A stretch of DNA of 64,000 bases from Rhodospirillaceae bacterium (lineage in GTDB: Bacteria > Pseudomonadota > Alphaproteobacteria > UBA828): contig PBDG01000009.1 in assembly GCA_002717225.1 (NCBI GenBank), positions 76,563 to 140,562 of the forward strand, in the 5' to 3' direction. This document shows, in pieces, positions 7,600-53,844 of the stretch; position 1 is the stretch's first letter, and each line of letters opens with the position of its first letter. The notes beneath the pieces are model-generated. The model made no database searches, was not told the DNA's origin, and saw nothing but the letters and a program-made list of their open reading frames with translations. The translations under genes and the position numbers were made by a program.

Positions 7600-7646
7600 A
7601 ACAGCAAAATTTGAGAATTCAAACAGAATCGAACGAGGCCCAACCC

Positions 7647-8783
7647 ATGAAACCCGTTGTCATCGCAGGATATAAAAGATCCCCCTTCCAGTTCGCCCAC
7701 AAGGGCCAATTGGTCAAAAAGCGGCCTGACGACCTGGCAGCCGACGTGGTACGCGGATTAATTGAGACAAGCGGGGTCGATCCATCTGGCATCGAGGATC
7801 TAATCATGGGCTGCGCCTTTCCCGAGGGCGAGCAGGGCTTTAACATGGGCCGCATCGTCGGTCTTCTGGCAGATTTGCCGATCTCTGTCGCTGGCGTCAC
7901 AGTCAACCGTTTCTGCGGCTCGTCTATGCAGTCGATCCACATTGCGGCCGGCGCGATCCAGATGAATGCCGGCGAAGCGTTTATCTGCGCCGGGGTAGAA
8001 TCCATGTCGCGTATCCCGATGGGTGGCTTCAACCCGATGCCCAATGCCGACCTCTTCGAGAAAAATGAAGGCGCCTACATGTCGATGGGCGAAACGGCAG
8101 AGAACCTTGCCGAGAAGTATCAAATCCCACGCGAGGAGCAAGAGGCGCTCGCCATTTCGAGTCACGCCAAAGCCGCTGCCGCGCGCGAAGATGGCAAGTT
8201 CAAGAGCGAGATCGTACCTATAGATTGCGATGGCGAGATCGTTGATCAGGATGGCTGTATCCGCACTGGGACCAATGCCGAAGATCTTGCCAAACTTGAA
8301 CCCGCCTTCGATGCGGAAGGCACGGTCACTGCCGGCACTTCATCACCACTGACTGACGGTGCATCAGCGGTACTGATCACTACAGAGGATTATGCCCAAG
8401 CCAATAATCTAGAGGTGCTTGCACGAATTAAAAGTGCAGCCGTCGCCGGTTGCCAGCCAGAAATTATGGGCTATGGCCCGGTAGTCTCCTCGGTAAAGGC
8501 GCTCGAGCGCGCCGGTATCTCAATGTCAGATATTGATGTAATCGAGCTCAACGAGGCCTTTGCCGTTCAGGCGCTGGCCTGTGTGCGTGAACTAACTATT
8601 GACCTTGACAAGATGAATTTAGATGGGGGTGCCATTGCGCTCGGCCATCCACTCGGTGCTACCGGCGCGCGTATTACTGGTAAGGCGGCGCAACTCCTGA
8701 ATCGCGAAAACAAGCGTTATGCACTAGCCACGCAATGCATCGGCGGCGGTCAGGGTATCTCCACCGTGCTCGAGGCGGCCTGA
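7647..8783 (+). CDS. Acetyl-CoA C-acyltransferase (3-ketoacyl-CoA thiolase)
   Basis: NRFCGSSMQ active-site Cys loop and a C-terminal GGGQG-type motif. Start moved to ATG 7647 (MKPVVIAGYKRSPF), which does not overlap the upstream ligase. Confidence 0.9.
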   Translation: MKPVVIAGYKRSPFQFAHKGQLVKKRPDDLAADVVRGLIETSGVDPSGIEDLIMGCAFPEGEQGFNMGRIVGLLADLPISVAGVTVNRFCGSSMQSIHIAAGAIQMNAGEAFICAGVESMSRIPMGGFNPMPNADLFEKNEGAYMSMGETAENLAEKYQIPREEQEALAISSHAKAAAAREDGKFKSEIVPIDCDGEIVDQDGCIRTGTNAEDLAKLEPAFDAEGTVTAGTSSPLTDGASAVLITTEDYAQANNLEVLARIKSAAVAGCQPEIMGYGPVVSSVKALERAGISMSDIDVIELNEAFAVQALACVRELTIDLDKMNLDGGAIALGHPLGATGARITGKAAQLLNRENKRYALATQCIGGGQGISTVLEAA

Positions 8784-11116: not shown

Positions 11117-11134
11117 ACAGTAGGAGAAAGAGAT

Positions 11135-22873: not shown

Positions 22874-23827
22874 TCATTCCAGTACGGTGGCATATTCTTC
22901 GATAGACAGTGTGTCTGGAATCAGACCCTGCTGCTGCATGAATTGGGCAAAGCGCATGTAGCGCGCACGGTCCAGAGCAGCGGGGCGCAGCGCGAAACGA
23001 GGCAGGGTATCGCGCCAGGCACGGCGGTTGAGTTCATCGTTTAATTCTTCCCGTCCACGAATGAAGAGTTCCCAGCTTACCTCCGGATGGTTAACAAGAT
23101 AGCGTACGCCGTCTTCCAGTGCATCGAGAAAGCGCCGCAGCACCTCGCGGTCCATGTGCTCTGGGTTGGCGACCAGGATCAACTCGTCATAACTCGGGAC
23201 CCCTTCCTCCTCAACATAGAAAGCTCGGCCCTCATAGCCCTCGATCGCCATCTGGTTGAGCTCAAAATTGCGATAGGCGCCTATCACCGCATCGACTTGG
23301 CCGGCCAACAGCGCTGGCGAGAGAGAAAAATTTACGTTCACTAAGGTAATGTCGGCGAGGGTGAGGCCGTGGCGTGCGAGCATAGCGCGCAGCAGGGCGT
23401 CCTCAAAGCCTCCAACGGAAAAGCCAACCTTACGGCCTTTCAGATCCGCTATCGTTTTTACGGGCCCATCCTTGAGCACGAGAAGGGTGTTCAAGGGAGT
23501 CGCCACCAGGGTACCAAAGCGGGTGAGCGGCAAGCCAGCGGCAACCTGGACATGAAGCTGCGGCTGGTATGAGACAGCAATATCAGCCTTGCCAGCGGCA
23601 ACCAACTTAGGTGGATCGTTTGGATCGGCCGGAGCGATCATCTCAACCTCAAGCTGCCGTTGCGCGAAATAGCCCATCTCCTCAGCGACAAAAAGCGGCG
23701 CATGGTCAGGATTGATAAACCAGTCGAGCAGCAGGATAAGTTTATCGTTCGCCCTGGCATGCGGTACTACCAGAAAAAGAATGAAGGCAGCTGGCAACAA
23801 AACTCTCAGCATAAAGTTGTAAATCAT
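22874..23827 (-). CDS. ABC transporter substrate-binding protein, NitT/TauT (NMT1/THI5-like) family
   Basis: Signal peptide plus the ...LLLDWFINPDHAPLFVAEEMGYF... block typical of sulfonate/nitrate/pyrimidine-precursor SBPs. Confidence 0.75.
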   Translation of the reverse strand: MIYNFMLRVLLPAAFILFLVVPHARANDKLILLLDWFINPDHAPLFVAEEMGYFAQRQLEVEMIAPADPNDPPKLVAAGKADIAVSYQPQLHVQVAAGLPLTRFGTLVATPLNTLLVLKDGPVKTIADLKGRKVGFSVGGFEDALLRAMLARHGLTLADITLVNVNFSLSPALLAGQVDAVIGAYRNFELNQMAIEGYEGRAFYVEEEGVPSYDELILVANPEHMDREVLRRFLDALEDGVRYLVNHPEVSWELFIRGREELNDELNRRAWRDTLPRFALRPAALDRARYMRFAQFMQQQGLIPDTLSIEEYATVLE

Positions 23828-23835
23828 ATGTCCGG

Positions 23836-24597
23836 TTACTCCTCTTTTTGCAGCGTCGATCGGTCAGGCTGCCACGGTAGGGCGCGGCGGAGAGCGTTAT
23901 CGATGACGAAATAGATCAGCACAGCGAAGATGGCTAAAGTGAACAAGGCGGCAAACATCAGATCAGCTTGTAGACGACCATTGGCATGCAGCATGAGGTA
24001 GCCGAGACCAGCGCTGGAGCCGACCCATTCACCGACAACTGCGCCAATAGGCGCAACAGCAGTGGCGACACGCAAACCGGAAGCAAGCGCCGGGAGCGCA
24101 GCAGGTATGCGAATATGAAGGAGCATCGTCCAGGGACTCGCGCCCATAGTTCGTGCTAGGTCAGTCCAGCCTGGATCGGTGCGTCTCAGGCCGTCGAAAA
24201 ATCCAGCGGCGACCGGAAAATAGATTATAAGCACAGCCATCGCCACTTTGGAAGCGATACCATATCCGAGCCACAGTACCAAGATCGGTGCAAGCGCGAA
24301 AACCGGCACCGCCTGACTTGCGACAAGAACTGGCAACAACCAGCGCTGCGCAGGCCGAAAATAGGCGAGCACAAGAGCGCTGAAAACGCCAAGTATAGTG
24401 CCGCAGAGAAGACCGAGGGTGATCTCCAACAAGGTTACGCCGGCATGGCCAAGGATCGCCATATGATTGGTCCACCAAGCAATGGCGACATCAGCGGGGG
24501 CCGGCAGAATGAAATGTGGTGCGCCGGTTAGCCAAACGATTATTTGCCATAGCAGGATCAAACCGGCAGCAATGATCAGCGGGCGAAAATAGCACAT
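23836..24597 (-). CDS. ABC transporter permease, NitT/TauT family
   Basis: 6-TM hydrophobic profile with an EAA-like loop, lying between the ATPase and SBP genes. Confidence 0.75.
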   Translation of the reverse strand: MCYFRPLIIAAGLILLWQIIVWLTGAPHFILPAPADVAIAWWTNHMAILGHAGVTLLEITLGLLCGTILGVFSALVLAYFRPAQRWLLPVLVASQAVPVFALAPILVLWLGYGIASKVAMAVLIIYFPVAAGFFDGLRRTDPGWTDLARTMGASPWTMLLHIRIPAALPALASGLRVATAVAPIGAVVGEWVGSSAGLGYLMLHANGRLQADLMFAALFTLAIFAVLIYFVIDNALRRALPWQPDRSTLQKEE

Positions 24598-25442
24598 TAA
24601 AAACCCGCCTCCGCTGCACCGAGCCGGCTTAGCAGTTCAGCATGGTGAGTAAGAAATTCAACATCTGCGGGATCGCGTGGGGTTTTACCGACGGGCGACG
24701 GCACCTCGGTAAGTTGCGCCGGTCGACCGGACATAATGAAGATGCATTCACCGAGGCGGAGTGCCTCCATCGGGTCATGGGTAACGAGCAGGATGGTGCG
24801 CCCGCGTAGGAGCTTGGTGGCAAGCTCCTGTAAACGCAGGCGAGTGACGGCATCGAGAGCAGAAAAGGGCTCGTCCATCAGCACCGTCGCACGTGCCTCC
24901 ATCAGAGTACGGGCGAGAGCAACACGCTGACGCATGCCACCAGAGAGCGCAGCTGGACGGGCATGCGCGTAGTTGTCTAGGCCCACCCTAGCGAGAAGGT
25001 CGCGGGCACGAGAACGATCTGGCGTATCGCTACGCAGACGCTGACCAAGAATTACATTGCCGAGTGCGTCGAGCCAGGGCAGCAGCAGGTCCTGCTGAGC
25101 CATATAGGCAGGTGGAGTAACAGCCCGATCAGAAACCTGATCACCGCTCACTATGAATTTGACTGATCCGCCGCCTTCGACCACCTCCAGGCCAGCGATC
25201 AGGCGCAGCAAGCTCGATTTGCCGACACCCGAGGGACCAAGAAGGACACTCACTCGCCCGGCTGGCAGTTCCAGGTCTAAATCATGAAAAAGAACAGAAC
25301 CCTCATAACTCAGATTGACCCGTGACAAACGGATCGCGGGTGGCGGTGAGAGGGGCTGAAAAAACTTTTCGCTGTTTGTCACATTCCCAGTTCCTACGCC
25401 GGCATTACCCGGGTCAGGTGTCGGGGTCGTTGGCAGCGCCAA
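24597..25442 (-). CDS. ABC transporter ATP-binding protein, NitT/TauT family
   Basis: Walker A GPSGVGKSS, signature LSGGMRQRVALARTL, and Walker B LLMDEPFSALD. It also has an N-terminal Pro/Thr-rich extension of about 35 aa. Confidence 0.85.
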   Translation of the reverse strand: MALPTTPTPDPGNAGVGTGNVTNSEKFFQPLSPPPAIRLSRVNLSYEGSVLFHDLDLELPAGRVSVLLGPSGVGKSSLLRLIAGLEVVEGGGSVKFIVSGDQVSDRAVTPPAYMAQQDLLLPWLDALGNVILGQRLRSDTPDRSRARDLLARVGLDNYAHARPAALSGGMRQRVALARTLMEARATVLMDEPFSALDAVTRLRLQELATKLLRGRTILLVTHDPMEALRLGECIFIMSGRPAQLTEVPSPVGKTPRDPADVEFLTHHAELLSRLGAAEAGF

Positions 25443-25623: not shown

Positions 25624-26790
25624 GTGATGGACTTTCTCACACAAGACCAGGAAGCGCTCGACGAAACCATCTCACGAATCTGCGCAGATTTCGGCGACGA
25701 TTACTGGCTGGCGCGGGATACGGACGGGAACTATCCGGAAAAGTTCGTTGCCGCTATTGCCGACGGCGGCTGGCTTGGCATCGCCATGCCAGAGGCACAT
25801 GGTGGTGCCGGTCTCGGCGTCACTGAAGCGGCCCTCATGATGCGTCGCATCGCCCAGTCAGGGGGCGGCTTCGCTGCCGCGTCCTCAGTGCATATAAATA
25901 TTTTTGGGCCCCATCCGATCGTCAAATACGGTACGCCCGAACAACAGGCGCGCTTGTTGCCGCCGCTGATCCAGGGCCGCGACCGCACCTGCTTCGGTAT
26001 TACAGAGCCCAATGCGGGCCTTGACACTGGCGCGATAGAGACCCGCGCCGAGTGGGACGGCAGTCATTATGTGGTGCATGGCCAAAAACTCTGGACATCC
26101 ACCGCCCAGCGGGCCAGCAAAATTATGCTGCTCGCCCGTACCGAGGGCAAGGATATCGTCGCCAAAAGCACCGACGGCCTCTCCCTGTTCTACACTGACC
26201 TCGACCAGGCTCATGTCGAAATACGGGAGATCGCCAAGATGGGCCGCAAGGCAGTGGATTCCAACGCACTCTTTATTGACGGCCTGAAAATTTCGCGTGC
26301 CGATTTAATTGGCGAGGAAGGTGAGGGTTTCCACTGCCTCCTCGACGGCCTAAACCCTGAGCGCATATTAATCGGCGCCGAGGCAATCGGGTTGGGGCGC
26401 TGTGCACTCACTAAAGCAGTGAACTACGCCCGTGAGCGCGAAGTATTTGGCCGGCCTATCGGCCAGAATCAGGCTATCCAGCACCCTCTAGCCGAAGCTT
26501 GGGCGGAGCTGGAGGCAGCTGATTTGATGGTGTTCAAGGCAGCACGGCTCTACGACGCAGGTGAGGCTTGCGGCGCGGAAGCCAATGCTGGGAAACACCT
26601 TGCTGCCGAAGCGGCTCACAAAGCTTGCGAACGCGCCGTCCTCACCCTTGGCGGCATGGGTTACGCCAAAGAATATCACGTCGAACGCTATTTGCGCGAA
26701 AGCTATATCGCCCGCATCGCGCCGGTAAGCAGAGAAATGATTCTCAATTTCATCGCCGAACGGGTCTTGGATTTACCACGCTCTTATTAG
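25624..26790 (+). CDS. Acyl-CoA dehydrogenase family protein
   Basis: 388 aa with ACAD blocks (GITEPNAGLDTG, ...GEEGEGF..., the C-terminal helical domain and LGGMGY). Confidence 0.85.
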   Translation: MMDFLTQDQEALDETISRICADFGDDYWLARDTDGNYPEKFVAAIADGGWLGIAMPEAHGGAGLGVTEAALMMRRIAQSGGGFAAASSVHINIFGPHPIVKYGTPEQQARLLPPLIQGRDRTCFGITEPNAGLDTGAIETRAEWDGSHYVVHGQKLWTSTAQRASKIMLLARTEGKDIVAKSTDGLSLFYTDLDQAHVEIREIAKMGRKAVDSNALFIDGLKISRADLIGEEGEGFHCLLDGLNPERILIGAEAIGLGRCALTKAVNYAREREVFGRPIGQNQAIQHPLAEAWAELEAADLMVFKAARLYDAGEACGAEANAGKHLAAEAAHKACERAVLTLGGMGYAKEYHVERYLRESYIARIAPVSREMILNFIAERVLDLPRSY

Positions 26791-26914: not shown

Positions 26915-28930
26915 CTATGCGACCCGAAGTGTCGGCGTTTCGTTACGCGCCTCGCCGGGAGCGTTCCAGTGGGACGCGGTCCGACGCTTCAGCATATCTC
27001 GGAATTGCTGGGTCGTTTTTGTCAGCAACTCGCCGGTACCCCAATCTACGATAACTCCATACTGGCGGATAAGATCAAGAGTATCGAGTTCCTTGGCGCG
27101 ATATTTTGCCGCAATCCCCTCGGCATCCTCATCCAGCCAAAGATGGCGGTTGTCCCGGATATAAGTGCGCTTAGCCTCGGTTTCAGTCTCGTCAACCTCA
27201 TATTCCGCAAGATCAGCGTCCACTTCACGTACGATTACACCATAATCTTTTGCTGCCCGCGAAATGGATACATAGCCCTCGCGCACATCGTCGCACACAG
27301 CCTGAATATCACGTTCCAGAGGATCACCAAGCCCGCCGCCGCCAGCTGAGGGCCTTGTCAGCACATCGCCGGATTCGACTGGTACACCAGAAAATAACGA
27401 GCCAAGATAACGTTCGCCCTGGCTGCCAGGATTGACCCAGACGCCATGCGGGATCGACGGCAAGCCACCCCATAAGCCCCAGGTGACCGAGCGCTCTCGA
27501 TCGCAGCAATAGGAAACTACGGAGCGTTCCGCGTCGGTCAAGGTGACCCCCTTCTCCACGCCCATCCCACCGCGCGAAGAGCCGGGGCCGCCAGAATCGA
27601 CGATCAACTCATGCTCGGTGGTAACCACAGGAGCAAGGCGCTCCTGGCCCTCGAAAGGCTGGGTGCCAAGTTGAACACCGAAAACCGGCCCGGAGGCAGC
27701 CCAGCCGTCGCGCCCGTTACGCGCGCCCCAGCCGCCGACCATCCAGTCGTACCACATGAAATAGGGTTGCCCCTCCTTGCGCCCATCGCGCCCACCGATG
27801 AGCAGGTATTCGAGATTAAAGGTACACGCCATCGCACGTTCAGGCAGAATCTCAGCCCACAACTCGAATACTGAGTTCATGATTTTCTCAAATGGCCCCG
27901 AACAAAACCCTGCGACCGGGGTTGGCCAATTAGCGTTGACTACCGAACCCTCTGGGCCAAGATCAACAGTAACCACCCGGTAAAAACCTGAATTGAGCGG
28001 GATGTCCGGCGACTGCATCTTGGTACCCGCAACAATCGCTGCGAATGCGCCGCCATAGCAACAATTGAGGAAGGTTGAGATCGTTTTCGGATGCGAATTC
28101 GAGAGGTCGTAATGCACCGAATCTCCATCGATGGTCATTTTGATGCGGATTGGTATAAGCCCTTCACCCTGCACAGGGTCCACGTCGATATAATCTTCTG
28201 TCTCCCAAACGCCGTCGGGCAGCTTCGCGATCCGCTGACGAGTGAGAGTCTCAACATAATCTTGAACCTCTCGGAATGATGTCTGGATCACCTCAACGCC
28301 GTATTTATCACAAAGGCGACAGATTTCTTTTTCCGCGATATTACATGCTTCAGCCTGGGCTTGTAGATCACCGATAATGTCGTCCGGAGCGCGGGTGTTG
28401 CTGGCGATGAGCTCAGCTACGTCAGAGAGGTAGACACCTTTGCTATATACCCGAACAGGCGTGATGCGCAGGCCCTCCGCCATGTGATCGAGCGCGTTCA
28501 CGTTGAACGAGCCAGGCACCGCGCCGCCTACATCGGCCCAATGACCGTTTGCCTGGGCAAATCCGAGATGGATATCCTTGTAGAAGATCGGGCGCACGAT
28601 GCGAGTATCATTGAAATGGGTGCCGCCCTGATAGACGTCGTTGACGACAAATGTATCACCGGGGTGCACATCGTCACCGAACTTATTAATCACGGCCTGT
28701 GCGGTGTAATGCAACGTTCCCACGTGAGCTGCAATATCGCCGCTTCCCTGCATAACCGTATTACCCTCCGTATCGCAAATGGCAGAGGAGAAGTCGCGTG
28801 ACCAGATGACGAAGGAATAGCAGGTCCGGAATATCTGCTCCGCCATTTGATCTACGATGTTGACATAGGCGTTTTTCAGAACCTCAAAGGTAACGGGATC
28901 CAGGGTGTAACCTTCTTTATTTGCACTCAC
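26915..28930 (-). CDS. Hydantoinase B / oxoprolinase / acetone-carboxylase alpha-like subunit (HyuB family) with a C-terminal extension of about 120 aa
   Basis: HyuB N-terminal block DPVTFEVLKNAYVNIVDQMAEQ and C-terminal GGGGLGDPLERD. Start re-assigned to GTG 28930, which has an AAGGAGA SD 7 nt upstream. This removes a 32-nt overlap with hyuA that the ATG at 28981 would create. Confidence 0.8.
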   Translation of the reverse strand: MSANKEGYTLDPVTFEVLKNAYVNIVDQMAEQIFRTCYSFVIWSRDFSSAICDTEGNTVMQGSGDIAAHVGTLHYTAQAVINKFGDDVHPGDTFVVNDVYQGGTHFNDTRIVRPIFYKDIHLGFAQANGHWADVGGAVPGSFNVNALDHMAEGLRITPVRVYSKGVYLSDVAELIASNTRAPDDIIGDLQAQAEACNIAEKEICRLCDKYGVEVIQTSFREVQDYVETLTRQRIAKLPDGVWETEDYIDVDPVQGEGLIPIRIKMTIDGDSVHYDLSNSHPKTISTFLNCCYGGAFAAIVAGTKMQSPDIPLNSGFYRVVTVDLGPEGSVVNANWPTPVAGFCSGPFEKIMNSVFELWAEILPERAMACTFNLEYLLIGGRDGRKEGQPYFMWYDWMVGGWGARNGRDGWAASGPVFGVQLGTQPFEGQERLAPVVTTEHELIVDSGGPGSSRGGMGVEKGVTLTDAERSVVSYCCDRERSVTWGLWGGLPSIPHGVWVNPGSQGERYLGSLFSGVPVESGDVLTRPSAGGGGLGDPLERDIQAVCDDVREGYVSISRAAKDYGVIVREVDADLAEYEVDETETEAKRTYIRDNRHLWLDEDAEGIAAKYRAKELDTLDLIRQYGVIVDWGTGELLTKTTQQFRDMLKRRTASHWNAPGEARNETPTLRVA

Positions 28931-28949
28931 GGTCCTCTTCTCCTTCTCT

Positions 28950-31004
28950 TCAGCTTTGCGCCAAGGGCACGTCGATAACAATCGTCAGGGAGGGATCGAC
29001 CTCCGCCTTCAGTCCGGGTGGAATAAGAACGGTTGAATCAAGCTGTTCGATGATCGCCGGTCCTTCCACCACGGCGCCGGCCTTCAATTTATCCCGATCA
29101 TAAACCGGTGTTTTGATCGACTCCGGTGCTTCGTCAAATACTACATCTCGCTCAGAATCTGGCTCTGGTGGCGTACCATCCAGATCATGCTCAGCAAATT
29201 CTGCTTTCGGCGTTTGGCCGGTGGCGGTGACAGTGAGACGGTAAACTTCGACGGGTGCATCGGGACGGGAGTAATTGTGCTCGCGACCATGTTCCTCATG
29301 GAATGACGCAGCCGCCTCATCAAGCGAGGTAATATTCTCGCCAACCTCTATCGACATAGCGCGCCATTGACCAAGATAGCGCATATCGACGTGGCGCTGA
29401 AAAGACATGCGGTCTTCTGTTACTCCTTCATGAGAAAGATGCTCACGGCCCTCGGCCTCCAGTTCCTGGAACGCGGCATCGACTTCCGCCATATCTACGT
29501 CTTCGAGTGCGCGCAAATACATGCGCGAGATATCATGCTTGATATCGACCAATAGGCAACCAAGCGCGGAGGTCACCCCAGGCGCTGGCGGAACCAACAC
29601 GGTGGGAATCGAAAGGTCTCGGGCCAGCGCGACACCGTGGAGCGGCCCCGCGCCACCAAAGGTCACCAAGGCAAAATCGCGAGGATCATAGCCGCGTCGG
29701 ATCGAAACTAGTCGAACCGCATCGGCCATATTAGCGTTCGCTACTTTGAGGATCGATACCGCTGCCTCTTGCAATGACAGACCGAGGGGTTCGGCAACCA
29801 CGCGGTTAATCGCCTCGGCGGATAGCGATTTATCAAGCGCAACCGCGCCACCGGCGAGGCGGTCGCTGAGGCGGCCAAGAACCACATTGGCATCACAATT
29901 TGTTGGTTCAGAACCGCCACGGCCATAGCAGGCCGGGCCGGGCGTCGAACCGGCGGATTGCGGCCCGTTGCGCAACGAGTTTGCCTCATCAATCCAGGCC
30001 AGTGAACCGCCACCTGCACCAATTGTCAGCACCTCGATGCTGGGGAAACAGATTGGATAGCCATACTCAATATACCAATCTGTGGTAACGCGCAGATTGC
30101 CCCGATCACACAGGGAAACATCTGTACTGGTGCCCCCCATATCAAGGCTAATGGAGTTTTCGTATCCAGCACGCTCTGCAACGAAGCGGCTAGCAATAGC
30201 GCCCGCCGCAATACCGGAAGCAGCCAACCGGGCGGGAAATTTTGACGCACCCTTCCCGGTCATCATGCCGCCACCAGAATGGAGTAGCAATACATCTTCC
30301 TTATAGCCACCCTCAGCCATCCGCTCTTCCAAGCGGGTCGTGTATTCACCGACGACGGGGGCGAGCACCGCATTGGCGACGGTGGTAGAAAAGCGCTCGT
30401 GTTCGAAGATTTCCGGCATGATTTCGCTTGAGAGCGAGATGTTCGCATCCGGAAGCTCTTCTTTGAGAATATCACGCATGCGCTCTTCATTAACAGGACT
30501 TGCGAATGCATTCGCGAAGCAAACAGCAATAGTTTTTACGCCCCGTTTGCGAATGATACGCGCTACTTCACGTGCCTCTTTTTCGTCGACCGGTTCCAAA
30601 ACCTTGCCCGCATAATCGATGCGCTCGCTAACCACTAAACGATTGCGGCGCGGAATATATGGCGGAGCCATTTCCTTATAGGTATCCCAAAGATCATCGC
30701 GCGTTCCGCGACGGATCTCGATAACGTCGCGGAAGCCCTTGGTGGTAACCATAATCGCTGGAGGGAAGTTACGCGTAATCAGTGCGTTGGTAGAAAGGGT
30801 CGTTCCGTGCGAAAAGAGCACCACATCCTTCAAATCAACGCCTGCCGCCGAAATGCCCGCCAACACCCCGTCGATAGGGTCGGGAGTAGTCGGAGATTTA
30901 GCAACATGGATTTTTCCCGTGGCTTCATCGAGTACGCAAACGTCGGTAAACGTGCCACCCACATCACAAGCTACTCTAACCGCCGCACCCGCATTATTGT
31001 TCAT
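28950..31004 (-). CDS. Hydantoinase A / oxoprolinase / acetone-carboxylase beta-like subunit (HyuA family)
   Basis: N-terminal VACDVGGTFTDVCVLD (ASKHA ATPase phosphate-1 motif), a length of 684 aa, and a second DMGGTSTDVS motif. Confidence 0.85.
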   Translation of the reverse strand: MNNNAGAAVRVACDVGGTFTDVCVLDEATGKIHVAKSPTTPDPIDGVLAGISAAGVDLKDVVLFSHGTTLSTNALITRNFPPAIMVTTKGFRDVIEIRRGTRDDLWDTYKEMAPPYIPRRNRLVVSERIDYAGKVLEPVDEKEAREVARIIRKRGVKTIAVCFANAFASPVNEERMRDILKEELPDANISLSSEIMPEIFEHERFSTTVANAVLAPVVGEYTTRLEERMAEGGYKEDVLLLHSGGGMMTGKGASKFPARLAASGIAAGAIASRFVAERAGYENSISLDMGGTSTDVSLCDRGNLRVTTDWYIEYGYPICFPSIEVLTIGAGGGSLAWIDEANSLRNGPQSAGSTPGPACYGRGGSEPTNCDANVVLGRLSDRLAGGAVALDKSLSAEAINRVVAEPLGLSLQEAAVSILKVANANMADAVRLVSIRRGYDPRDFALVTFGGAGPLHGVALARDLSIPTVLVPPAPGVTSALGCLLVDIKHDISRMYLRALEDVDMAEVDAAFQELEAEGREHLSHEGVTEDRMSFQRHVDMRYLGQWRAMSIEVGENITSLDEAAASFHEEHGREHNYSRPDAPVEVYRLTVTATGQTPKAEFAEHDLDGTPPEPDSERDVVFDEAPESIKTPVYDRDKLKAGAVVEGPAIIEQLDSTVLIPPGLKAEVDPSLTIVIDVPLAQS

Positions 31005-31274
31005 TTAAGTCGCCCCTCCCGAAAAACATCGTGAACACTGTAAAATTGATGGTATTTGCAATAGCTTCTCCCCACACTTCAACTCTTCAAAAGGTCTCTA
31101 GGTTAGCAAATTTTGCGGTAACTTAGTATCCGACACAGAGCATGTCCACGACAACACTCATTAATAATTTAATGTTTTTCCACGCTCGACAAGTGCGGTT
31201 ACATACGGCAAGAATTTACGGCTGGCCGACTGCGGCCACAAATTATTTTGATGTCAGAGCGAAAGAGGTGCCGC

Positions 31275-33386
31275 ATGGCGAGCTATCTTTGCGGAATCGA
31301 TATCGGTGGTACTTTTACCGATTGTGTTATCGTCGACGGAGCGGGTGCCGTCACCACTGCTAAGGCTCCGTCCACTCCGCATGATTTTGCCAGAGGTGTT
31401 CAAGACGCTCTGAAAGCCGCCAGCGGCAAATTGGATCTAGAATTAGACGAACTCTGTTCCGAAATCACCATGCTGAGCCATGGCACCACGGTTGGAACTA
31501 ACGCTATCATCCAGAAGCGCGGCGCCAAAGTTGGACTAATCACCACGCGCGGCCATAACGATGTAATCCACATCATGCGTGGCTCGCGCGGCCTCACCGG
31601 TAACGAGATTCGCCTGGTTGTGCATATCCCCGAAAGCCAGAAGCCAGACCCGATCATTCCCAAACGTCTGATCGAGGGTGTCTCAGAGCGAGTCGACTGC
31701 TTCGGCAAAGTCATCGTCAAGCTTAATGAAGAGGAGGCCGAGGCCGCGATCCGCCGCCTTCTGGAAAAAGACGTTGAAGCCATCGCTGTCTGCTTCCTTT
31801 GGTCATTCCTCGCCCCACAGCACGAGGCGCGGGTAAAGGAAATGATCGCCGATATCGCGCCCAATATGTTCGTCACCACCTCGCACGAGCTGGTCCCGAA
31901 ATGGGGCGAATATGAGCGTACCGCTGCAGTGGCGCTTAACGCTTATATTGGCCCACTCACCACCGGCTATATCGCCGGCGTAGCAAGCGACGTAGAGGGT
32001 CTCGGTTATCATCAACCGTTGCAAATCACGCAATGTGCTGGTGGCACCATTTCGGTCAACCGCGCAATGTCAGCGCCCTTACTAACCCTTGATTCCGGAC
32101 CGGTCGCCGGCGTCACTGGCTCGCAATATGCCGGCGGACTGATGGGCTATGACAATATCATTACCACTGACATGGGCGGAACCTCCTTTGATGTCGGCAT
32201 AATTCACGATGGCAAACCAGCCTTTTCCTACACTAGCCTAGTTCATCAATATGCCTATTATCTCTCCAAGGTAGATATTCAGACCATCGGCGCGGGCGGC
32301 GGCTCCAAGGCTTGGATCGATGAAACCTCAGGGATGCTACGCGTCGGCCCAGAAAGCGCTGGAGCGGCGCCCGGACCCGCCTGTTATGGTCGCGGCGGCG
32401 ATATTGCAACAGTAACCGACGCGGACCTACTGCTCGGCTATCTTGACGCGGAAAATTTTGCTGGTGGTTCCCTCACACTCGACCGTGCAGCAGCAGAAGC
32501 AGCGATCAGAAAGATTGCAGACCCTCTGGGGCTTAGCCAGCTTGAAGCCGCCGCTGGCATCGTCAAGATTGCTGAATTCCAAATGGCCGACCTCATTCGC
32601 AAGGTGACCATCCAGAAGGGATTTGATCCGCGAGATTTTGTGCTATTTGCTTTCGGCGGCGCTGGTCCAGTTCATGCCGGCGTGTTCGCCAAGGAGCTCG
32701 GTGTCTCAAAGGTTATCGTACCGCAGCGCGAGACCGCTTCGGTCTGGTGTGCCTTTGGTGCTGCGGCGGCAGACGTTCTACATGTTCATGAGCGGGTTAA
32801 CATGATGCGCTCACCCTTCGATGTCGTCGAATTGAACAACGTGCTCGGAGAATTGGAGAACCGCGCTAAAGCAGAATTGACAGCGGATGAAATCCTGCCT
32901 GAACGCCAGCACCTTCGCTTCGCCCTCGACATGCGCCACAAGGGGCAGATCAACGAAGTCGAGGTAGAAATTTCAGGGTCGTCCTTAGCAGAAGTCGATT
33001 TGCCTAAACTACGCGACGCCTTCGTCGGGCAATATGAACGCCAATATGGCCAGGGCGCCTCGTTGCCCGGAGCGCGCCTAGAAATCGTCACCTTCCGCTG
33101 CCGCGCCGCGGCAGATACAGCCAAACCACGCCTGACGCGAGCCGACAAAATGACCGCTACCATCGATGGTGCTGCGTTACGACCGGCGCGCTTAGTCTTT
33201 TGGACTGAATATAGCGAGACAATCGATACGCAAGTGTTCAACGGCGAGAAGCTCGCCCCTGGCAACGGTGTGTCCGGCCCGGCGATTGTCGAGACAGCGG
33301 ATACCACGGTTGTGCTTCATCCAGAACAAACTCTTGCAGTCGATGCGTTCGGAAATTTCGAACTCACGCTCGCAGCATCCAAATAG
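31275..33386 (+). CDS. Hydantoinase A family subunit (HyuA), second paralog
   Basis: GIDIGGTFTDCVIVDG and DMGGTSFDVG motifs. Start taken at ATG 31275, which has an AAAGAGG SD. Confidence 0.85.
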   Translation: MASYLCGIDIGGTFTDCVIVDGAGAVTTAKAPSTPHDFARGVQDALKAASGKLDLELDELCSEITMLSHGTTVGTNAIIQKRGAKVGLITTRGHNDVIHIMRGSRGLTGNEIRLVVHIPESQKPDPIIPKRLIEGVSERVDCFGKVIVKLNEEEAEAAIRRLLEKDVEAIAVCFLWSFLAPQHEARVKEMIADIAPNMFVTTSHELVPKWGEYERTAAVALNAYIGPLTTGYIAGVASDVEGLGYHQPLQITQCAGGTISVNRAMSAPLLTLDSGPVAGVTGSQYAGGLMGYDNIITTDMGGTSFDVGIIHDGKPAFSYTSLVHQYAYYLSKVDIQTIGAGGGSKAWIDETSGMLRVGPESAGAAPGPACYGRGGDIATVTDADLLLGYLDAENFAGGSLTLDRAAAEAAIRKIADPLGLSQLEAAAGIVKIAEFQMADLIRKVTIQKGFDPRDFVLFAFGGAGPVHAGVFAKELGVSKVIVPQRETASVWCAFGAAAADVLHVHERVNMMRSPFDVVELNNVLGELENRAKAELTADEILPERQHLRFALDMRHKGQINEVEVEISGSSLAEVDLPKLRDAFVGQYERQYGQGASLPGARLEIVTFRCRAAADTAKPRLTRADKMTATIDGAALRPARLVFWTEYSETIDTQVFNGEKLAPGNGVSGPAIVETADTTVVLHPEQTLAVDAFGNFELTLAASK

Positions 33387-33396
33387 GGATACAATT

Positions 33397-35688
33397 ATGC
33401 CCCGCATCAGCCAAATCACCGATACCACATTCGACGGTATCAACAATCCCTATGTGCCAAAAAAGGATCTTGACATTTCACCCAGTCTCAAACTGCACCG
33501 CGAGTGGGATGAAACCTTGGACCCGGTCACCTACGAGGTGATCCGCCACAATCTATGGAACATCAATGAAGAGCATGGCGCTACAATCCAGCGAATATCT
33601 GGTTCGCCAGTGGCTATGTTCGCTCTCGACCTTAATCCCTCGATTCTTACCGAGGATGCCGAATTCGTCTATTTCGGCCCCTATATGCAATACATGTCCG
33701 GCGTCACCGACACGCAGGTGAAATGGATTCTCGAATACCGCTCGGACAATCCGGGAATCAAGCCGGGAGATATGTTTCTCGCCAACGACCCTTGGGTCGG
33801 CGCAGCACATCAGATGGACGTAATGCTGATCTGCCCGGTCTTCCATGGTGACAAACTGTTTTGCTGGATCACCAATTGCCTCCATCAATACGATATCGGC
33901 GGCATCACCCCGGGCAGCTTCTGCCCGGCGGCAGAGAGCGCGTTCGACGAGGGCATCCTTATCCCGCCGGTGAAAATTGTCGAGAACGACGTAGTGCGCA
34001 AGGACATTGAAGCACTTTATCTCCGCTCGTCACGCAAGCCAGAGATGGTAGCGCTAGATTTCCGCGCTCAACTCGCTGGCAACATGACCGCTAAGACGCG
34101 CATCAAGGCACTGATTGATCGCTACGGTGCCAAGACCGTAAAAAGCGTGATGAAGAAGGTGATCGATAATTCCGAAGCTGCCTTCCTTTCAAAGCTAAAG
34201 AAAATCCCCGACGGGGTGTGGCGCGACCGCACATATGTTGAGGCCTGCCGCCCTGGCGACCGGCGTACCCACCGGGTGCAGATCGCGCTCACCAAGAAGG
34301 GGGACAAGCTGATCTTCGACAATGAGGGTACCGCGCCGCAAGACGGCGCCATGAACGCAACCTATTCCGGGTGGCGCGGTTCGGTGATGGTTGCAATCAA
34401 CGAGCTCTTGAGTTGGGATCAATATTTTGCGGTCGGTGGCGCTTTGCGCCATATCGAATTTGACCCAGTCCCTGGTACGCTTAACTGTGCTGATTTTCCT
34501 GCATCGGTCTCCACCGCACCGACGCAATCAATGGAAATCTCGCTCTATCCAGCCTATAACATCATCTCCAAGATGCTATATTCCGATGAAGAGCTGCGGC
34601 AAGACATCATGGGCATCGGTGGGACCAGTCAATGGCCGACCACCATCTTCCGTGGTATTGATCAATGGGGCGAACGATACGGCTATATTTTGATTGACCC
34701 GATAGGTGGATCTATTGGCGCGTTTGCACAAGGTGACGGCATCAACACTGGTGGCCAGGCAAGGACGCCGATCGGCCAGTTGCCCAATGTCGAACACAAT
34801 GAGCAACTCTTTCCCCTCCTATTCCTTTACCGCAAGGAGCTACCGGATTCAGGGGGCGCCGGGAAGTTCCGGGGCGGTCTCTCCGCGGAAAGCTGTTTCA
34901 TCCCACACAACACTGATTTCATCACCCAGGATACGCTTTCCTCCGGCAACGCTATCCCGACTTCAACCGGTATGATGGGCGGCTATCCGTCCACCACCAA
35001 CGCTTATACTTTCATCCGAGAGAGCGACATCTTTCAGCGCATGAAGGAGTCTAGGCTAATCGAAGACAGCTCCGAAGTAGCAGGCAACCCCCAACATCTC
35101 GAGCTACGCCAGGAAAATTTTGTGCAAAATTCAGCGGACGTTTATGCCGTGCGATGGTCTGGTGGCGGCGGCTTTGGCGATCCACTGCAACGCGACATCG
35201 AAAGGATCGTTCATGACCTGGAGCATCTCAATATTACGCCAAAAGCGGCGCGCGAGATTTTCGGCGCAGTGCTTGACGAAAATGAACAGGTAGATGTGGC
35301 GGCAACGGAAGAGAATCGTAACAAGATCCGCAAAGAACGCCTTGAGCGCCTCAAAAATGGCCAGGTGCCACGCGACAGCCATGCAGGAGAGACAGCTTTC
35401 CCTGCTGGAGATAATCTCGCGGTCTATGGCTCCGGCGATACCGCACGCTGGGGCTGCGCCCACTGCACCGCCGACCTTGGACCGATTGGTGAGAATTTCA
35501 AGGATGCATGTCTACGCGATGACCGCCCAGTTTCAGACTCCAACCCGCTGGTGGGCGACCCGGCTGTCTTTATTGATGATGCGGTCAATTTTCGCCTGTT
35601 TTATTGCCCATCCTGTGGTAATCAGATCGACAATGAAATAGCTGTGACCAGCGACGCTGTACTTCGCGACATTGAATTGACCGTGTAA
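33397..35688 (+). CDS. Hydantoinase B family subunit (HyuB), second paralog, with a C-terminal Cys4 (CxxC...CxxC) extension of about 150 aa
   Basis: HyuB blocks DPVTYEVIRHNLWNINEEHG and GGGGFGDPLQRD. The tail carries WGCAHC (Cys codons at 35454 and 35464) and YCPSCG (35605, 35614). Start taken at ATG 33397, after the hyuA stop. Confidence 0.8.
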   Translation: MPRISQITDTTFDGINNPYVPKKDLDISPSLKLHREWDETLDPVTYEVIRHNLWNINEEHGATIQRISGSPVAMFALDLNPSILTEDAEFVYFGPYMQYMSGVTDTQVKWILEYRSDNPGIKPGDMFLANDPWVGAAHQMDVMLICPVFHGDKLFCWITNCLHQYDIGGITPGSFCPAAESAFDEGILIPPVKIVENDVVRKDIEALYLRSSRKPEMVALDFRAQLAGNMTAKTRIKALIDRYGAKTVKSVMKKVIDNSEAAFLSKLKKIPDGVWRDRTYVEACRPGDRRTHRVQIALTKKGDKLIFDNEGTAPQDGAMNATYSGWRGSVMVAINELLSWDQYFAVGGALRHIEFDPVPGTLNCADFPASVSTAPTQSMEISLYPAYNIISKMLYSDEELRQDIMGIGGTSQWPTTIFRGIDQWGERYGYILIDPIGGSIGAFAQGDGINTGGQARTPIGQLPNVEHNEQLFPLLFLYRKELPDSGGAGKFRGGLSAESCFIPHNTDFITQDTLSSGNAIPTSTGMMGGYPSTTNAYTFIRESDIFQRMKESRLIEDSSEVAGNPQHLELRQENFVQNSADVYAVRWSGGGGFGDPLQRDIERIVHDLEHLNITPKAAREIFGAVLDENEQVDVAATEENRNKIRKERLERLKNGQVPRDSHAGETAFPAGDNLAVYGSGDTARWGCAHCTADLGPIGENFKDACLRDDRPVSDSNPLVGDPAVFIDDAVNFRLFYCPSCGNQIDNEIAVTSDAVLRDIELTV

Positions 35689-35729: not shown

Positions 35730-36203
35730 ATGACAACGCAATTTTCGATTCTCACAATCGCAGCCGCCATGCTTGTGCTCGTCGCCTGCGGACGCGGCCC
35801 CGAACTCACAGCTAGCTCCGCACCTACGCAAATTGGCGACGACACGACTGCGGCGTTTCAGCCGATTGCCGATGTGCCGATCCCCGAGGGTGCACGGCTC
35901 GATAGCGAGCGCAGTTTAGTACTCGGCGGAGAATATAATTGGACCGGCCGCTTGGTTTTCATGGTCAGCGAGTCGCCAGCCGATGCTTACGCGCTCTACC
36001 ATCAGGAAATGCAGCGGTTCGGATGGCGGCTGATCACCAGCGTACAGGCCGAATCGAGCGTGTTGGCCTTTAACCAAGGCAAACGTGTGGCAACTATTCA
36101 AATTGAGGGCCGCACACTCTCGGGCGCAACCATCGCCATCACTATGTCGCCGCGTCACGAAGGGAGCAGTGACTCTGTCGATGTAACGCCACTCGGCGAA
36201 TAA
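35730..36203 (+). CDS. Hypothetical lipoprotein
   Basis: Signal peptide with lipobox LVAC|G (MTTQFSILTIAAAMLVLVACGRG). No recognisable catalytic motif. Confidence 0.5.
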   Translation: MTTQFSILTIAAAMLVLVACGRGPELTASSAPTQIGDDTTAAFQPIADVPIPEGARLDSERSLVLGGEYNWTGRLVFMVSESPADAYALYHQEMQRFGWRLITSVQAESSVLAFNQGKRVATIQIEGRTLSGATIAITMSPRHEGSSDSVDVTPLGE

Positions 36204-50988: not shown

Positions 50989-51909
50989 ATGTGCGGAATC
51001 GCAGGCATCATGTTCAAAAATGGTCGAACTGACCATGAAACGGGCGTGGCGCTAATCGATATGCTCGATGGCTGCCAACACAGGGGTCCGGATTCCACGG
51101 GCTTTGCGCTCTATGGCGAAGAACACACGAGCGAGCTCAAGTTACGCTTTCTTATTGGAGACGGCACCGCGGCCGATGACTCCGTCGAACTGATCAAGAG
51201 TGCGCTGGAGGATCATGATGCGGAAATCGTCGACGATATGCGCATCGGCAACAATTATCAGGCGCTGGTGCGCTTTAACGGCGATCTACGCAGCTTTGCC
51301 TATGCGATGGAACACGCGGCGCCCGATGCTAAAGTCATCTCCATCGGACAGAGCCTAGATATCGTCAAAGATGTGGGCGGCGCCCATGATGTAGATGACC
51401 GCTTCGACGTACATAACTTTAAAGGCAGCCATGGCCTCGGCCATGTGCGCCTCGCCACCGAATCGGATGTCCGCCCGGAATCAGCGCACCCTTTCTGGGC
51501 TACTGGTTTTTCCGACGTCGCCATCGTCCATAACGGCCAGATCACCAATTATTGGAAGATGCGCCGCCGGCTTGAGCAACGCGGATTTGAATTCCGCACC
51601 GACAATGATAGTGAATTAGTTGCTGTCTATCTTGCCGACAAAATGTCCCAGGGAGTGCCTCTGCGCGAAGCCCTAAAAGCTTCGATTGAAGATTTGGACG
51701 GCACTTTTTCCTTCCTCGTCTCGACCAAGGACGAAATCGGCTATGCCAAGGATAATCTCGCCGCGAAACCGATGGTCATGTACGAAACCGACGACCTCAT
51801 CGCCATCGCTTCGGAAGAAGTGTCCCTTAATCGCCTGTTTCCGGGCCACGCACTGAACACCAAGGAGCCCCCGCCGGGGAGCTATGATACATGGTCCAAA
51901 TCGACCTAG
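50989..51909 (+). CDS. Class-II (Ntn) glutamine amidotransferase, GlxB/MgsA-like subunit of a split glutamate-synthase-like enzyme
   Basis: The mature N-terminus after Met is CGIAGI, the class-II GATase nucleophile Cys. The size is about 306 aa. Start set at ATG 50989. Confidence 0.8.
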   Translation: MCGIAGIMFKNGRTDHETGVALIDMLDGCQHRGPDSTGFALYGEEHTSELKLRFLIGDGTAADDSVELIKSALEDHDAEIVDDMRIGNNYQALVRFNGDLRSFAYAMEHAAPDAKVISIGQSLDIVKDVGGAHDVDDRFDVHNFKGSHGLGHVRLATESDVRPESAHPFWATGFSDVAIVHNGQITNYWKMRRRLEQRGFEFRTDNDSELVAVYLADKMSQGVPLREALKASIEDLDGTFSFLVSTKDEIGYAKDNLAAKPMVMYETDDLIAIASEEVSLNRLFPGHALNTKEPPPGSYDTWSKST

Positions 51910-53843
51910 CGGAAATTCCAGTCCGCCAGGCCAACGAACTTATCCGCAAATATGGGGCCGACGGCGAGGATATTGATATAATTAACCCCGACGCGCGACA
52001 TCACGTCGGCGTAGGGTTGACCGACCCAGTGACTGTGCGCGTGCACGGGTCCGCAGGTTATTTCTGCGCTGGCTTGACCGATGCGGCCCACTTCGAGATT
52101 GAAAGCAACGTCGGCTGGGGCCTTGGCGACAATATGTATACAGGCTCTGTTATCGTTGGCGGAAATGCCAGCGCAATCGCCGGCGTGGCGATACGCGGCG
52201 CCGAAATTGTCATCAAAGGCAATATGGGATCGCGCGCCGGACAAGTAATGAAAGCGGGCACACTCTTGTGCTGTGGCAATGCAAATTTTATGGCCGGCTA
52301 TCTCATGTATGGCGGGCGCATCATCATCCTGGGCGATTCCGGCGAACGCGTCGGTGAAGATATGGCCGCCGGTGAGATTTATGTCGGTGGAAAGGTTCAG
52401 TCGCTTGGCTCCGATGCCAAAATGGGCGATACGGAAAGCAGCAAAATTGACGAGCTACGCGCCTTTCTCGACCGTTACAAGATTACCTTTAATGGCGATT
52501 TCCAGAAAATTGTCAACGAAGGCAAAAAGCTGCATTACAAAACCTCAGAACGGCCGATGCGCAGCCTTCCCTTTGTCGGATTCTCGGGAAAATCGGATTA
52601 CTGGAACCCGAAAATTCAGGAAGATATTCATATAAAATCACAGATTGGCCGCTATCGCGTACGTGGTTATGGCGGTGCGCGGGAACTGCCACACCTGGCA
52701 GATATCGGATTCGCGCGGAATATCTCCGGGTTAAATGAGATTTCCAACCCGGTGTCCAAGGTCGAGATGCGCACGCTGATCGGCGGCAAACACGGGGCGC
52801 AACCGCTCGACCTTTCAATGCCGGTGATGATCGCGCCAATGAGCTATGGCGCGTTGAGCCGTTCCACCAAACAAGCCATCGGTATCGCCTCATCGCTCGC
52901 AGGAATCGCGGAAAATACCGGTGAAGGTGGTATGAGCGACGCCCAGCGTGGTGCCGCGGAGCAATTGGTTTTCCAAATGCTTGGTGGACGGCTTGGTTGG
53001 AACATCCATGATATGAAACGCGCCAATGGGTTGGAGATCTATATTAGCCAGGGCGCCAAGCCCGGCTTCGGCGGTCAGCTCATGGCGAAAAAGGTGACCA
53101 AGGAACTAGCCGAAATTCGAGGTATCCCCCAAGGCATCGATCTGCGCTCACCATCGCGGCATCCGGATATTCTGGGCGGCGACGATCTCCTCATCAAGGT
53201 CGAGGAAATGCGCGAAGCAACAGGATATCGTTTGCCGGTCAGCGTCAAGCTAGGCGCCGGACGGGTGCGCGACGACATCAAGATCGCTTACAAGGATGGC
53301 TTCGATTTTGTCGAGCTCGACGGCATGCAGGGCTCAACCGGTGCCGGTGGCGCAGAAGTCATGGAATATGTTGGCATTCCCACTATCTCAGCGATCATGG
53401 ACGCGCTTGATGGTCTGGCGGAGATCGACGCCGACGGCAAAATTCAAATCATTCTCATGGGTGGTCTGCGCGACGGCGTGGACGCAGTCAAATCGCTTTG
53501 TCTCGGCGCCGATGCGGTGGCCTTTGGCAACGCCACGATCATCGCCGGCGGTTGCATTTCCTGCATGCAGTGCCATGTTGGTCAGTGTGTGACCGGCATC
53601 GCAACCCAGGACCCCGAGCATGAGAAGCGCTACCGCCCGGAAATCGAAGCGCATAATATCCACCGCTTTCTCGAAGGAGTGCGCTGGCAGATCGCAGCGC
53701 TGACCCACGCACTCGGCTATGGAGATGTCAAATCTCTCAACCGGGACGACCTCGTCGCCCTGACCCCAGAGGCGGCGGAGATCACGCGCCTTCCCTACCG
53801 GCCAGAGCTTCGCGAACAACAGCATCTCAGCAAGGCAGTCTAA
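51891..53843 (+). CDS. Fusion protein: GXGXG-repeat domain (N-terminal, GlxC/GltB C-terminal-domain-like) + glutamate-synthase FMN/Fe-S central domain (GlxD/GltB domain-2-like)
   Basis: N-terminal 230 aa has G-rich beta-helix repeats (VIVGGNASAIAG..., VIKGNMGSRAGQV..., LCCGNANFMAGY..., IILGDSGERVGED..., IYVGGKV). The C-terminal 420 aa has NTGEGG, QGAKPGFGGQL, DGMQGSTGAGG, and the 3Fe-4S motif C-x5-C-x4-C followed by VTGIATQDP. Confidence 0.8.
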   Translation: MVQIDLAEIPVRQANELIRKYGADGEDIDIINPDARHHVGVGLTDPVTVRVHGSAGYFCAGLTDAAHFEIESNVGWGLGDNMYTGSVIVGGNASAIAGVAIRGAEIVIKGNMGSRAGQVMKAGTLLCCGNANFMAGYLMYGGRIIILGDSGERVGEDMAAGEIYVGGKVQSLGSDAKMGDTESSKIDELRAFLDRYKITFNGDFQKIVNEGKKLHYKTSERPMRSLPFVGFSGKSDYWNPKIQEDIHIKSQIGRYRVRGYGGARELPHLADIGFARNISGLNEISNPVSKVEMRTLIGGKHGAQPLDLSMPVMIAPMSYGALSRSTKQAIGIASSLAGIAENTGEGGMSDAQRGAAEQLVFQMLGGRLGWNIHDMKRANGLEIYISQGAKPGFGGQLMAKKVTKELAEIRGIPQGIDLRSPSRHPDILGGDDLLIKVEEMREATGYRLPVSVKLGAGRVRDDIKIAYKDGFDFVELDGMQGSTGAGGAEVMEYVGIPTISAIMDALDGLAEIDADGKIQIILMGGLRDGVDAVKSLCLGADAVAFGNATIIAGGCISCMQCHVGQCVTGIATQDPEHEKRYRPEIEAHNIHRFLEGVRWQIAALTHALGYGDVKSLNRDDLVALTPEAAEITRLPYRPELREQQHLSKAV

Positions 53844-53844
53844 G

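Follow-up and report, generated by a model that had tools for sequence, protein, structure and literature searches.

Three operon types have been described for enzymes built on HyuA- and HyuB-type subunits, namely hydAB, which lacks a gamma subunit, acxABC, and apcABCD(E), and gamma has been reported only from carboxylases, being absent from every characterised Hyd enzyme (PMC5214803). In acetone carboxylase (Acx), Cys74/76/124/127 of gamma form a four-coordinate zinc site (PMC5543143), and in acetophenone carboxylase (Apc), which holds 2 Zn per heterooctamer, Cys22/25/75/78 of gamma took up mercury and are regarded as the likeliest zinc site (PMC5214803). The gamma zinc has been assigned a structural role and lies at a distance from both active sites (PMC5214803, PMC5543143), and the gamma fold has been likened to Yippee (PMC5543143). 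In Apc, gamma wraps the HyuB-type subunit and is in turn clasped by the C-terminal arm of beta (PMC5214803). Here, we analysed a 64,000-nt stretch of DNA (the window) from a Rhodospirillaceae bacterium (assembly GCA_002717225.1, contig PBDG01000009.1, positions 76,563 to 140,562 of the forward strand), which encodes two HyuA/HyuB pairs. The HyuB protein of the second pair (HyuB2) ends in a Cys-containing tail that is very probably homologous to the gamma subunit (AcxC, ApcB) of biotin-independent, ATP-dependent ketone carboxylases, here joined covalently to HyuB and predicted to serve as a structural Zn(Cys)4 module.

The HyuB2 gene starts with an ATG (33397-33399) that lies 10 nt past the TAG stop of the upstream gene HyuA2 (33384-33386) and is preceded by a Shine-Dalgarno-like AGGGA, and it ends with a TAA (35686-35688); its homologs of 756-782 aa start with MPRISE/Q. 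Residue numbers used here are those of the Met numbering minus one, because the translation was taken from position 33400. The match of PF02538 to the body of the protein is full length (profile positions 1-519 of 519). A preliminary description of this DNA had located at 35290..35688 a 130-aa extension with two CxxC pairs, WGCAHC and YCPSCG, about 50 residues apart. This segment is indeed the in-frame 3' part of a single unbroken open reading frame (ORF), and both pairs are present with 47 residues between C689 and C736. The extension is likewise real, but it reaches ~110 rather than 130 residues beyond the shared HyuB core, because residues 631-650 belong to the C-terminal helical arm common to other HyuB/Apc-beta proteins. 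A fifth Cys of the tail, C704, is kept in close relatives only.

The tail on its own matched Pfam PF08882 (acetone carboxylase gamma subunit) with 41.6 bits (gathering score 21, E 1.6e-10), as did the whole protein with 37.5 bits, and its best NCBIfam model was ApcB (35.6 bits, equivalog cut-off 250). Against solved structures, the single tail sequence retrieved 5l9w_C, the gamma chain of acetophenone carboxylase (E 3.2e-6), with WYCHDC and FYCPGC opposite the two motifs. A tail profile built from 9 fused tails and 12 stand-alone relatives of ~100 aa matched the same chain with E 1.4e-14, and also 5m45_C (E 3e-7) and 5svb_C (E 5.6e-7). In single-sequence and profile alignments all four Cys coincided with the published ligands of Apc-gamma and Acx-gamma, the alignment to Acx-gamma beginning only at its residue 57. 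The earlier reading of the tail as an alpha-gamma fusion is right, since the tail is homologous to gamma and its Cys align with the metal ligands, although 'alpha-gamma' follows Acx naming and the protein is a beta-gamma fusion in the unified naming of PMC5214803.

Weak matches of the tail profile to MsrB, Yippee-like 5 and Mis18 (E 0.008 to 0.7) agree with the published Yippee-like description of gamma (PMC5543143). Zinc-binding beta domains of the Yippee/Mis18/MsrB type likewise hold one zinc with two CxxC knuckles ~45-50 residues apart, but their likeness to the tail is marginal and comes without a functional link. The earlier term 'classic zinc ribbon' is inexact and fits only loosely: Zn_ribbon_SprT, YjdM, Nudix and other such Pfam families reached only E 0.013-0.1, far below cut-offs and through the CPSCG knuckle only, and the published gamma fold is Yippee-like.

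An AlphaFold model of HyuB2, built on a 99-sequence alignment, reached a predicted local distance difference test score (pLDDT) of 83.2 and a predicted template-modelling score of 0.87, with pLDDT values of 88-96 in the tail. In this model, the turn that links strands 683-686 and 691-695 carries the first knuckle, CxxC, and the one that links strands 729-735 and 742-749 carries the second, CPxC, while DSSP assigned a long helix to residues 633-651 inside the C-terminal arm. Foldseek searches of the PDB with the body returned 5l9w_A (Apc-beta; template-modelling score 0.68/0.76), 5m45_A (acetone carboxylase alpha) and 6yra_B (CapB); those with the tail returned 5l9w_C, with a root-mean-square deviation of 2.3 Å across 101 columns, and the Acx gamma chains 5svc_C/5svb_C/5m45_C with probability 1.0. 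Structure prediction, suggested earlier as a check on whether the four Cys could form a site, has therefore yielded a gamma-type fold that superposes on 5l9w_C and carries both CxxC motifs at hairpin turns, which implies that the four thiols would converge in the predicted domain.

A search of 5.8 billion proteins with HyuB2 gave 2,068 matches at E ≤ 1e-10. The best 120 of these are 69-92% identical to the query and 751-782 aa long, except for the partial P0021, and PF02538 and PF08882 occur together in all but two of them, one exception being a partial sequence. The four Cys are kept in each of the 119 full-length close homologs; C686, C689, C736, P737 and C739 are invariant across nine divergent fused proteins (32-42% identity), and the Cys are invariant in the 12 stand-alone ~100-aa gamma relatives, too. 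An exhaustive search with only the tail recovered 372 cluster representatives, the best 150 of which include 8 fused proteins of full length, each representing a different 50%-identity cluster, 55 fragments consisting of a HyuB C-terminus plus tail, and many short stand-alone forms; the Cys were retained in nearly all of these 150 wherever the column was covered. Loss of the four Cys in orthologs, named earlier as a result that would refute the proposal, is thus contradicted by close and divergent homologs alike. GTDB representative genomes contain 420 loci encoding a relative, and the fusion is present in all of the best 80. Median identity over 80 loci was 52% for the tail and 77% for the body, the Cys being kept nonetheless, and a faster-diverging tail with constant Cys fits a structural metal site.

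Among known systems, Apc of Aromatoleum aromaticum (gamma, apcB, 5l9w_C; beta, apcD, 5l9w_A) comes closest to both halves of HyuB2-gamma, in sequence as well as in structure. Its gamma is of similar length (129 aa) and resembles the tail in having four Cys in two CxxC knuckles ~50 residues apart and in lacking the N-terminal extension of Acx-gamma, and HyuB2 possesses an arm comparable to that with which Apc-beta embraces gamma. However, Apc-gamma is a separate polypeptide, and in the order apcABCD(E) its gene precedes that of beta without adjoining it, whereas the HyuB2 ORF is continuous and its homologs are likewise fused. Moreover, Apc requires alpha-prime and epsilon subunits, none of which accompanies HyuB2, and its identity to HyuB2-gamma is ~25%, short of equivalog-level ApcD/ApcB similarity. 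The acetone carboxylase AcxABC of Xanthobacter autotrophicus (5m45, 5svb, 5svc) has the same complement of one ATPase, one HyuB-type subunit and gamma, encoded in three genes rather than two. Gene order is also the same, that is, HyuA-like, HyuB-like and gamma, with the last two fused in HyuB2, so that joining acxB to acxC by read-through would produce exactly the HyuB2-gamma architecture. On the other hand, the first knuckle of Acx-gamma is CxC and its N-terminus is longer by ~50 residues, the Acx body is only ~21% identical to that of HyuB2, and Glu replaces the first Asp of its metal site (PMC8453981). A Zn(Cys)4 site, as predicted for HyuB2, has been observed in Acx-gamma. Finally, CapAB (6yra), HyuAB N-methylhydantoinase and 5-oxoprolinase share with HyuA2/HyuB2 the two-gene hyuA-hyuB organisation, an ASKHA ATPase plus Hydantoinase_B body and the Asp-His-Asp-His site, but they all lack a gamma subunit or domain (PMC5214803); HyuB1, of the first pair in the window, is of this type, and HyuB2 is not.

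A split form of the fusion was found at locus L084 (1-1543), where a HyuB gene (product 43% identical to HyuB2) is followed by a stand-alone 102-aa Acetone_carb_G (PF08882) gene, the stop of the former overlapping the start of the latter by 14 nt, and then by a TetR regulator. This split pair and the published order acxA, acxB, acxC (PMC5214803) make fusion of adjacent genes the obvious origin of HyuB2-gamma.

Table 1. Features of the two HyuA/HyuB pairs in the window; residue numbers are one below the Met count.
Feature	Coordinates	Strand	Details and basis
HyuB2-gamma fusion, complete gene	33397..35688	+	single unbroken ORF; 763 aa including Met
Hydantoinase_B domain, beta-type catalytic body	33520..35184	+	residues 41-595; PF02538, E 4.8e-103
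Catalytic metal tetrad	33628..33885	+	D77 33628-30, H137 33808-10, D140 33817-19, H162 33883-85
C-terminal arm and linker	35185..35397	+	residues 596-666, into the gamma domain; DSSP of the AlphaFold model
Gamma-subunit-like domain (Acetone_carb_G)	35398..35679	+	residues 667-760; PF08882, PDB and Foldseek matches
First CxxC knuckle, WGCAHC	35455..35466	+	C686 35455-57, C689 35464-66; aligns with Apc-gamma C22/C25 and Acx-gamma C74/C76
Second CPxC knuckle, YCPSCG	35605..35616	+	C736 35605-07, P737, C739 35614-16; aligns with Apc-gamma C75/C78 and Acx-gamma C124/C127
HyuA2, ATP-binding partner subunit	31248..33386	+	Pfam Hydant_A_N, Hydantoinase_A and Hydant_A_C
HyuA1	28950..31004	-	caprolactamase-like pair, without gamma; Pfam and NCBIfam
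HyuB1	26915..28981	-	caprolactamase-CapB-like: CapB 338.7 bits vs ApcD 109

Enzymes of this family hold their catalytic metal in the HyuB body, through an Asp-His-Asp-His tetrad (PMC8453981; for its role also PMC5543143), which is common to hydrolases and carboxylases (PMC8453981). In HyuB2, this tetrad is D77/H137/D140/H162, which aligns with D65/H123/D126/H148 of Apc-beta and D41/H99/D102/H124 of CapB and is invariant in the nine divergent fused proteins. HyuB1 retains it as well. The tail had been proposed to mark the second pair as the metal-dependent member; this contrast fails because HyuB1 has the same tetrad as HyuB2, and the zinc of gamma is described as structural and distant. The 'carboxylase-like' part of that proposal is plausible, as gamma is known only from carboxylases.

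Our placement of HyuA2/HyuB2-gamma among carboxylases and hydrolases rests on comparative bit scores; we lean slightly towards a ketone carboxylase, acting on an unspecified substrate, over a hydrolase, as a tentative assignment. Of the solved structures, Apc-beta (5l9w_A) matched the HyuB2 body with 184 bits (E 2.9e-53), compared to 117 for CapB and 111.9 for Acx-alpha (5m45_A), and NCBIfam likewise scored ApcD at 219.9 bits vs 158.7 for CapB. Three loci (L085 5891-17385, L086 with the same layout, and L087 5868-16984) encode two divergent fused HyuB-gamma paralogs, ~42% identical to HyuB2, that adjoin genes for an AMP-binding CoA ligase, a B12-dependent acyl-CoA mutase (MM_CoA_mutase plus B12-binding), ECH/MaoC hydratases and an SDR. 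This recurrent setting raises the possibility that the fused enzyme feeds into a CoA-ester pathway in which the carbon skeleton is rearranged, and such neighbours would suit further metabolism of an acid product, as expected of a carboxylase. In L085, a sigma-54 activator also lies beside a fused paralog.

Several observations weigh against a carboxylase. The ApcD score falls far below its equivalog cut-off of 1500, as does that of ApcB below its own, no Apc alpha-prime or epsilon subunits are encoded nearby, and the CapA model scores higher with HyuA2 (578 bits) than ApcC does (450 bits), both scores being under the equivalog cut-offs. Neighbourhoods within the close family are variable and undiagnostic, and the fused clade has no characterised member. 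A more general caution, which concerns the domain and not the carboxylase assignment, is that the published role of gamma is itself undefined: the subunit is called 'not essential for integrity' and lies away from the active sites (PMC5214803).

The rival that survives best is an ATP-dependent amidohydrolase of the lactamase, hydantoinase or oxoprolinase type that carries a gamma domain, in which case gamma would be an unreliable carboxylase marker; we hold this to be only somewhat less likely than a carboxylase. It would account for the two-gene hyuAB organisation, the closeness of HyuA2 to CapA, the absence of a second ATPase subunit and of epsilon, and the N-methylhydantoinase B annotation, automatic though this is, and the tetrad, being shared by both kinds of enzyme (PMC8453981), is compatible with it. 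However, all characterised gamma enzymes are carboxylases and all characterised Hyd enzymes lack gamma (PMC5214803), the HyuB2 body is nearest to Apc-beta, acetone carboxylase also runs on a single ATPase subunit (PMC5214803, PMC5543143), and the divergent fused paralogs adjoin genes of CoA-ester metabolism.

The immediate surroundings of HyuB2-gamma were compared with those of 69 related loci. HyuA is the sole conserved neighbour: among the 69 loci, which are those where ORF calling found the gene, 45 have it immediately upstream in the same orientation, while the other neighbours vary and include enoyl-CoA hydratase, TetR, thiolase-like, methyltransferase and S-adenosylmethionine hydrolase genes. 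Alpha-prime, epsilon, carbonic anhydrase and CoA transferase genes were sought around these 69 loci, and none was conserved beyond HyuA. Similarly, neither a second ATPase of the Apc type (alpha-prime) nor an epsilon subunit was found beside HyuB2, which is adjoined by one HyuA only. The true start of HyuA2 is probably the ATG near 31275. Directly 3' of HyuB2 lies a 157-aa ORF (35730-36203, plus strand) with a lipoprotein-like N-terminus (a hydrophobic stretch leading to LVACG) and no Pfam match, which is kept downstream in only the 5-7 closest relatives.

Considering these features, HyuA2 and HyuB2-gamma would provide an alpha-beta-gamma complement, dimerised as in acetone carboxylase but encoded by only two genes where that enzyme has three. 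The substrate would be phosphorylated by HyuA2 at the expense of ATP, and the activated intermediate would pass to the D77/H137/D140/H162 site of the HyuB2 body, where a bond would be made (carboxylation) or broken (hydrolysis). The tail is predicted to form a small all-beta domain whose knuckles, C686-x2-C689 and C736-P-x-C739, would hold one structural Zn(II) by four thiolates, and which would take no direct part in catalysis. As in Apc, this domain would pack on the HyuB (beta-type) body, held by the C-terminal helical arm. We read it as a tethered structural Zn(Cys)4 module because published gamma is embraced by the arm, is distal and holds structural zinc, and because the HyuB2 arm (596-666) runs on into the domain.

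The four Cys might instead bind iron, as in rubredoxin, or act as a regulatory switch that senses redox state or metals, in place of a passive structural zinc site, but this is improbable. What we take to be a resemblance of the CPxCG second knuckle to the rubredoxin motif is a point for an iron centre. The function of gamma is also undefined, and acetone carboxylases of different species hold different metals, Fe included (PMC5543143, PMC10865871). However, no rubredoxin Pfam family matched the tail, whose spacing and predicted fold agree with gamma and Yippee-like domains. In addition, zinc was modelled as four-coordinate at the homologous Acx Cys site (PMC5543143), Apc contains zinc in the amount given above (PMC5214803), and the published question of Fe or Mn concerns the catalytic site.

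Least of all can the tail be credited to an artefact or chance, either an assembly error or frameshift joining two genes or an unrelated generic zinc ribbon, a very remote prospect despite the split HyuB and gamma gene pairs that occur elsewhere (L084) and the weak matches of several zinc-ribbon Pfam families to the CPSCG knuckle, since the fusion recurs in 119 of the best 120 homologs, from many independent assemblies and sources, in 80/80 retrieved genome loci and in the eight full-length representatives of distinct clusters, and since the PF08882 match is significant whereas zinc-ribbon matches remain below threshold.

The best 80 of the 420 genome loci all come from metagenome-assembled genomes (MAGs) of Alpha- and Gammaproteobacteria, SAR324 and others, and include no cultured isolate; by record titles, their habitats are marine, lake and groundwater. 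The nearest genome match (93% identity) belongs to an 'uncultured Rhizobiaceae' MAG. Several of the 80 MAGs are labelled Klebsiella/Enterobacteriaceae, but their contigs resemble those of environmental Gammaproteobacteria, and these labels are probably taxonomic errors. Precomputed Pfam annotation already shows the two-domain architecture on thousands of database proteins, while the database labels of HyuB2 homologs are 'hydantoinase B/oxoprolinase family' or 'N-methylhydantoinase B' only. We found no description of a HyuB-gamma fusion in the open-access literature; a 2026 preprint on Arctic acetone carboxylases reports deep-branching AcxB-like clades of uncertain substrate and describes no fusion. 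The domain thus belongs to a known family, and the fused two-gene form is common and unremarkable as a fusion event, yet uncharacterised and outside the published three-type scheme.

With the gene count of the hydAB type and the subunit complement of the acxABC type, the HyuA/HyuB-gamma cassette could represent a widespread fourth type of biotin-independent, ATP-dependent ketone carboxylase beside acxABC and apcABCDE, one that occurs chiefly in uncultured Alpha- and Gammaproteobacteria of aquatic habitats and in SAR324, a proposal that we put forward more tentatively still than the carboxylase assignment itself. Its substrate would be a small ketone, perhaps a volatile one such as acetone or butanone. 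If true, fused gamma would be a simple sequence marker separating carboxylases from look-alike two-gene hydantoinases and lactamases. At present, routine 'hydantoinase/oxoprolinase' or 'N-methylhydantoinase' labels mask the real role of HyuA/HyuB pairs. Should gamma track carboxylase chemistry, thousands of genes could be cheaply re-annotated, and ketone-dependent CO2 incorporation would be indicated in abundant uncultured aquatic bacteria. The fusion also sets the ratio of gamma to catalytic subunit at 1:1, which makes it a convenient system for studying the role of gamma.

The other HyuA/HyuB pair of the window served for comparison. HyuB1 and HyuB2 are 25% identical, in an alignment that ends at residue 647 of HyuB2, a divergence that shows the two pairs to be putative functionally distinct enzymes and not redundant paralogs, as judged at the level of sequence. 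HyuB1 has its own C-terminal extension of ~75 residues beyond the CapB-like core, which is free of Cys. A six-frame search of the 64-kb window with the tail profile for a second gamma recovered only the HyuB2 copy (E 8.7e-37), the next match scoring E 0.73; the first pair is therefore without gamma, either fused or separate, in line with what had been said of it in the preliminary description.

Adjoining this first pair, genes at 22874-25442 (minus strand) encode an NMT1/THI5-type substrate-binding protein, a permease and an ATPase, that is, an ATP-binding cassette (ABC) importer, which may take up the substrate of the first pair. An acyl-CoA dehydrogenase gene at 25624-26790 also adjoins HyuB1, in addition to that of a fatty-acid beta-oxidation-type cluster at 5887-12934 (plus strand), which comprises genes for an acyl-CoA ligase, a thiolase, a 3-hydroxyacyl-CoA dehydrogenase/enoyl-CoA hydratase fusion and an acyl-CoA dehydrogenase. 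Farther along the window (51891-56376, plus strand) lies a gene whose product resembles glutamate synthase and combines GXGXG and Glu_synthase domains; the gene after it encodes a Fer4_20/Pyr_redox_2 protein like dihydropyrimidine dehydrogenase or small GltD.

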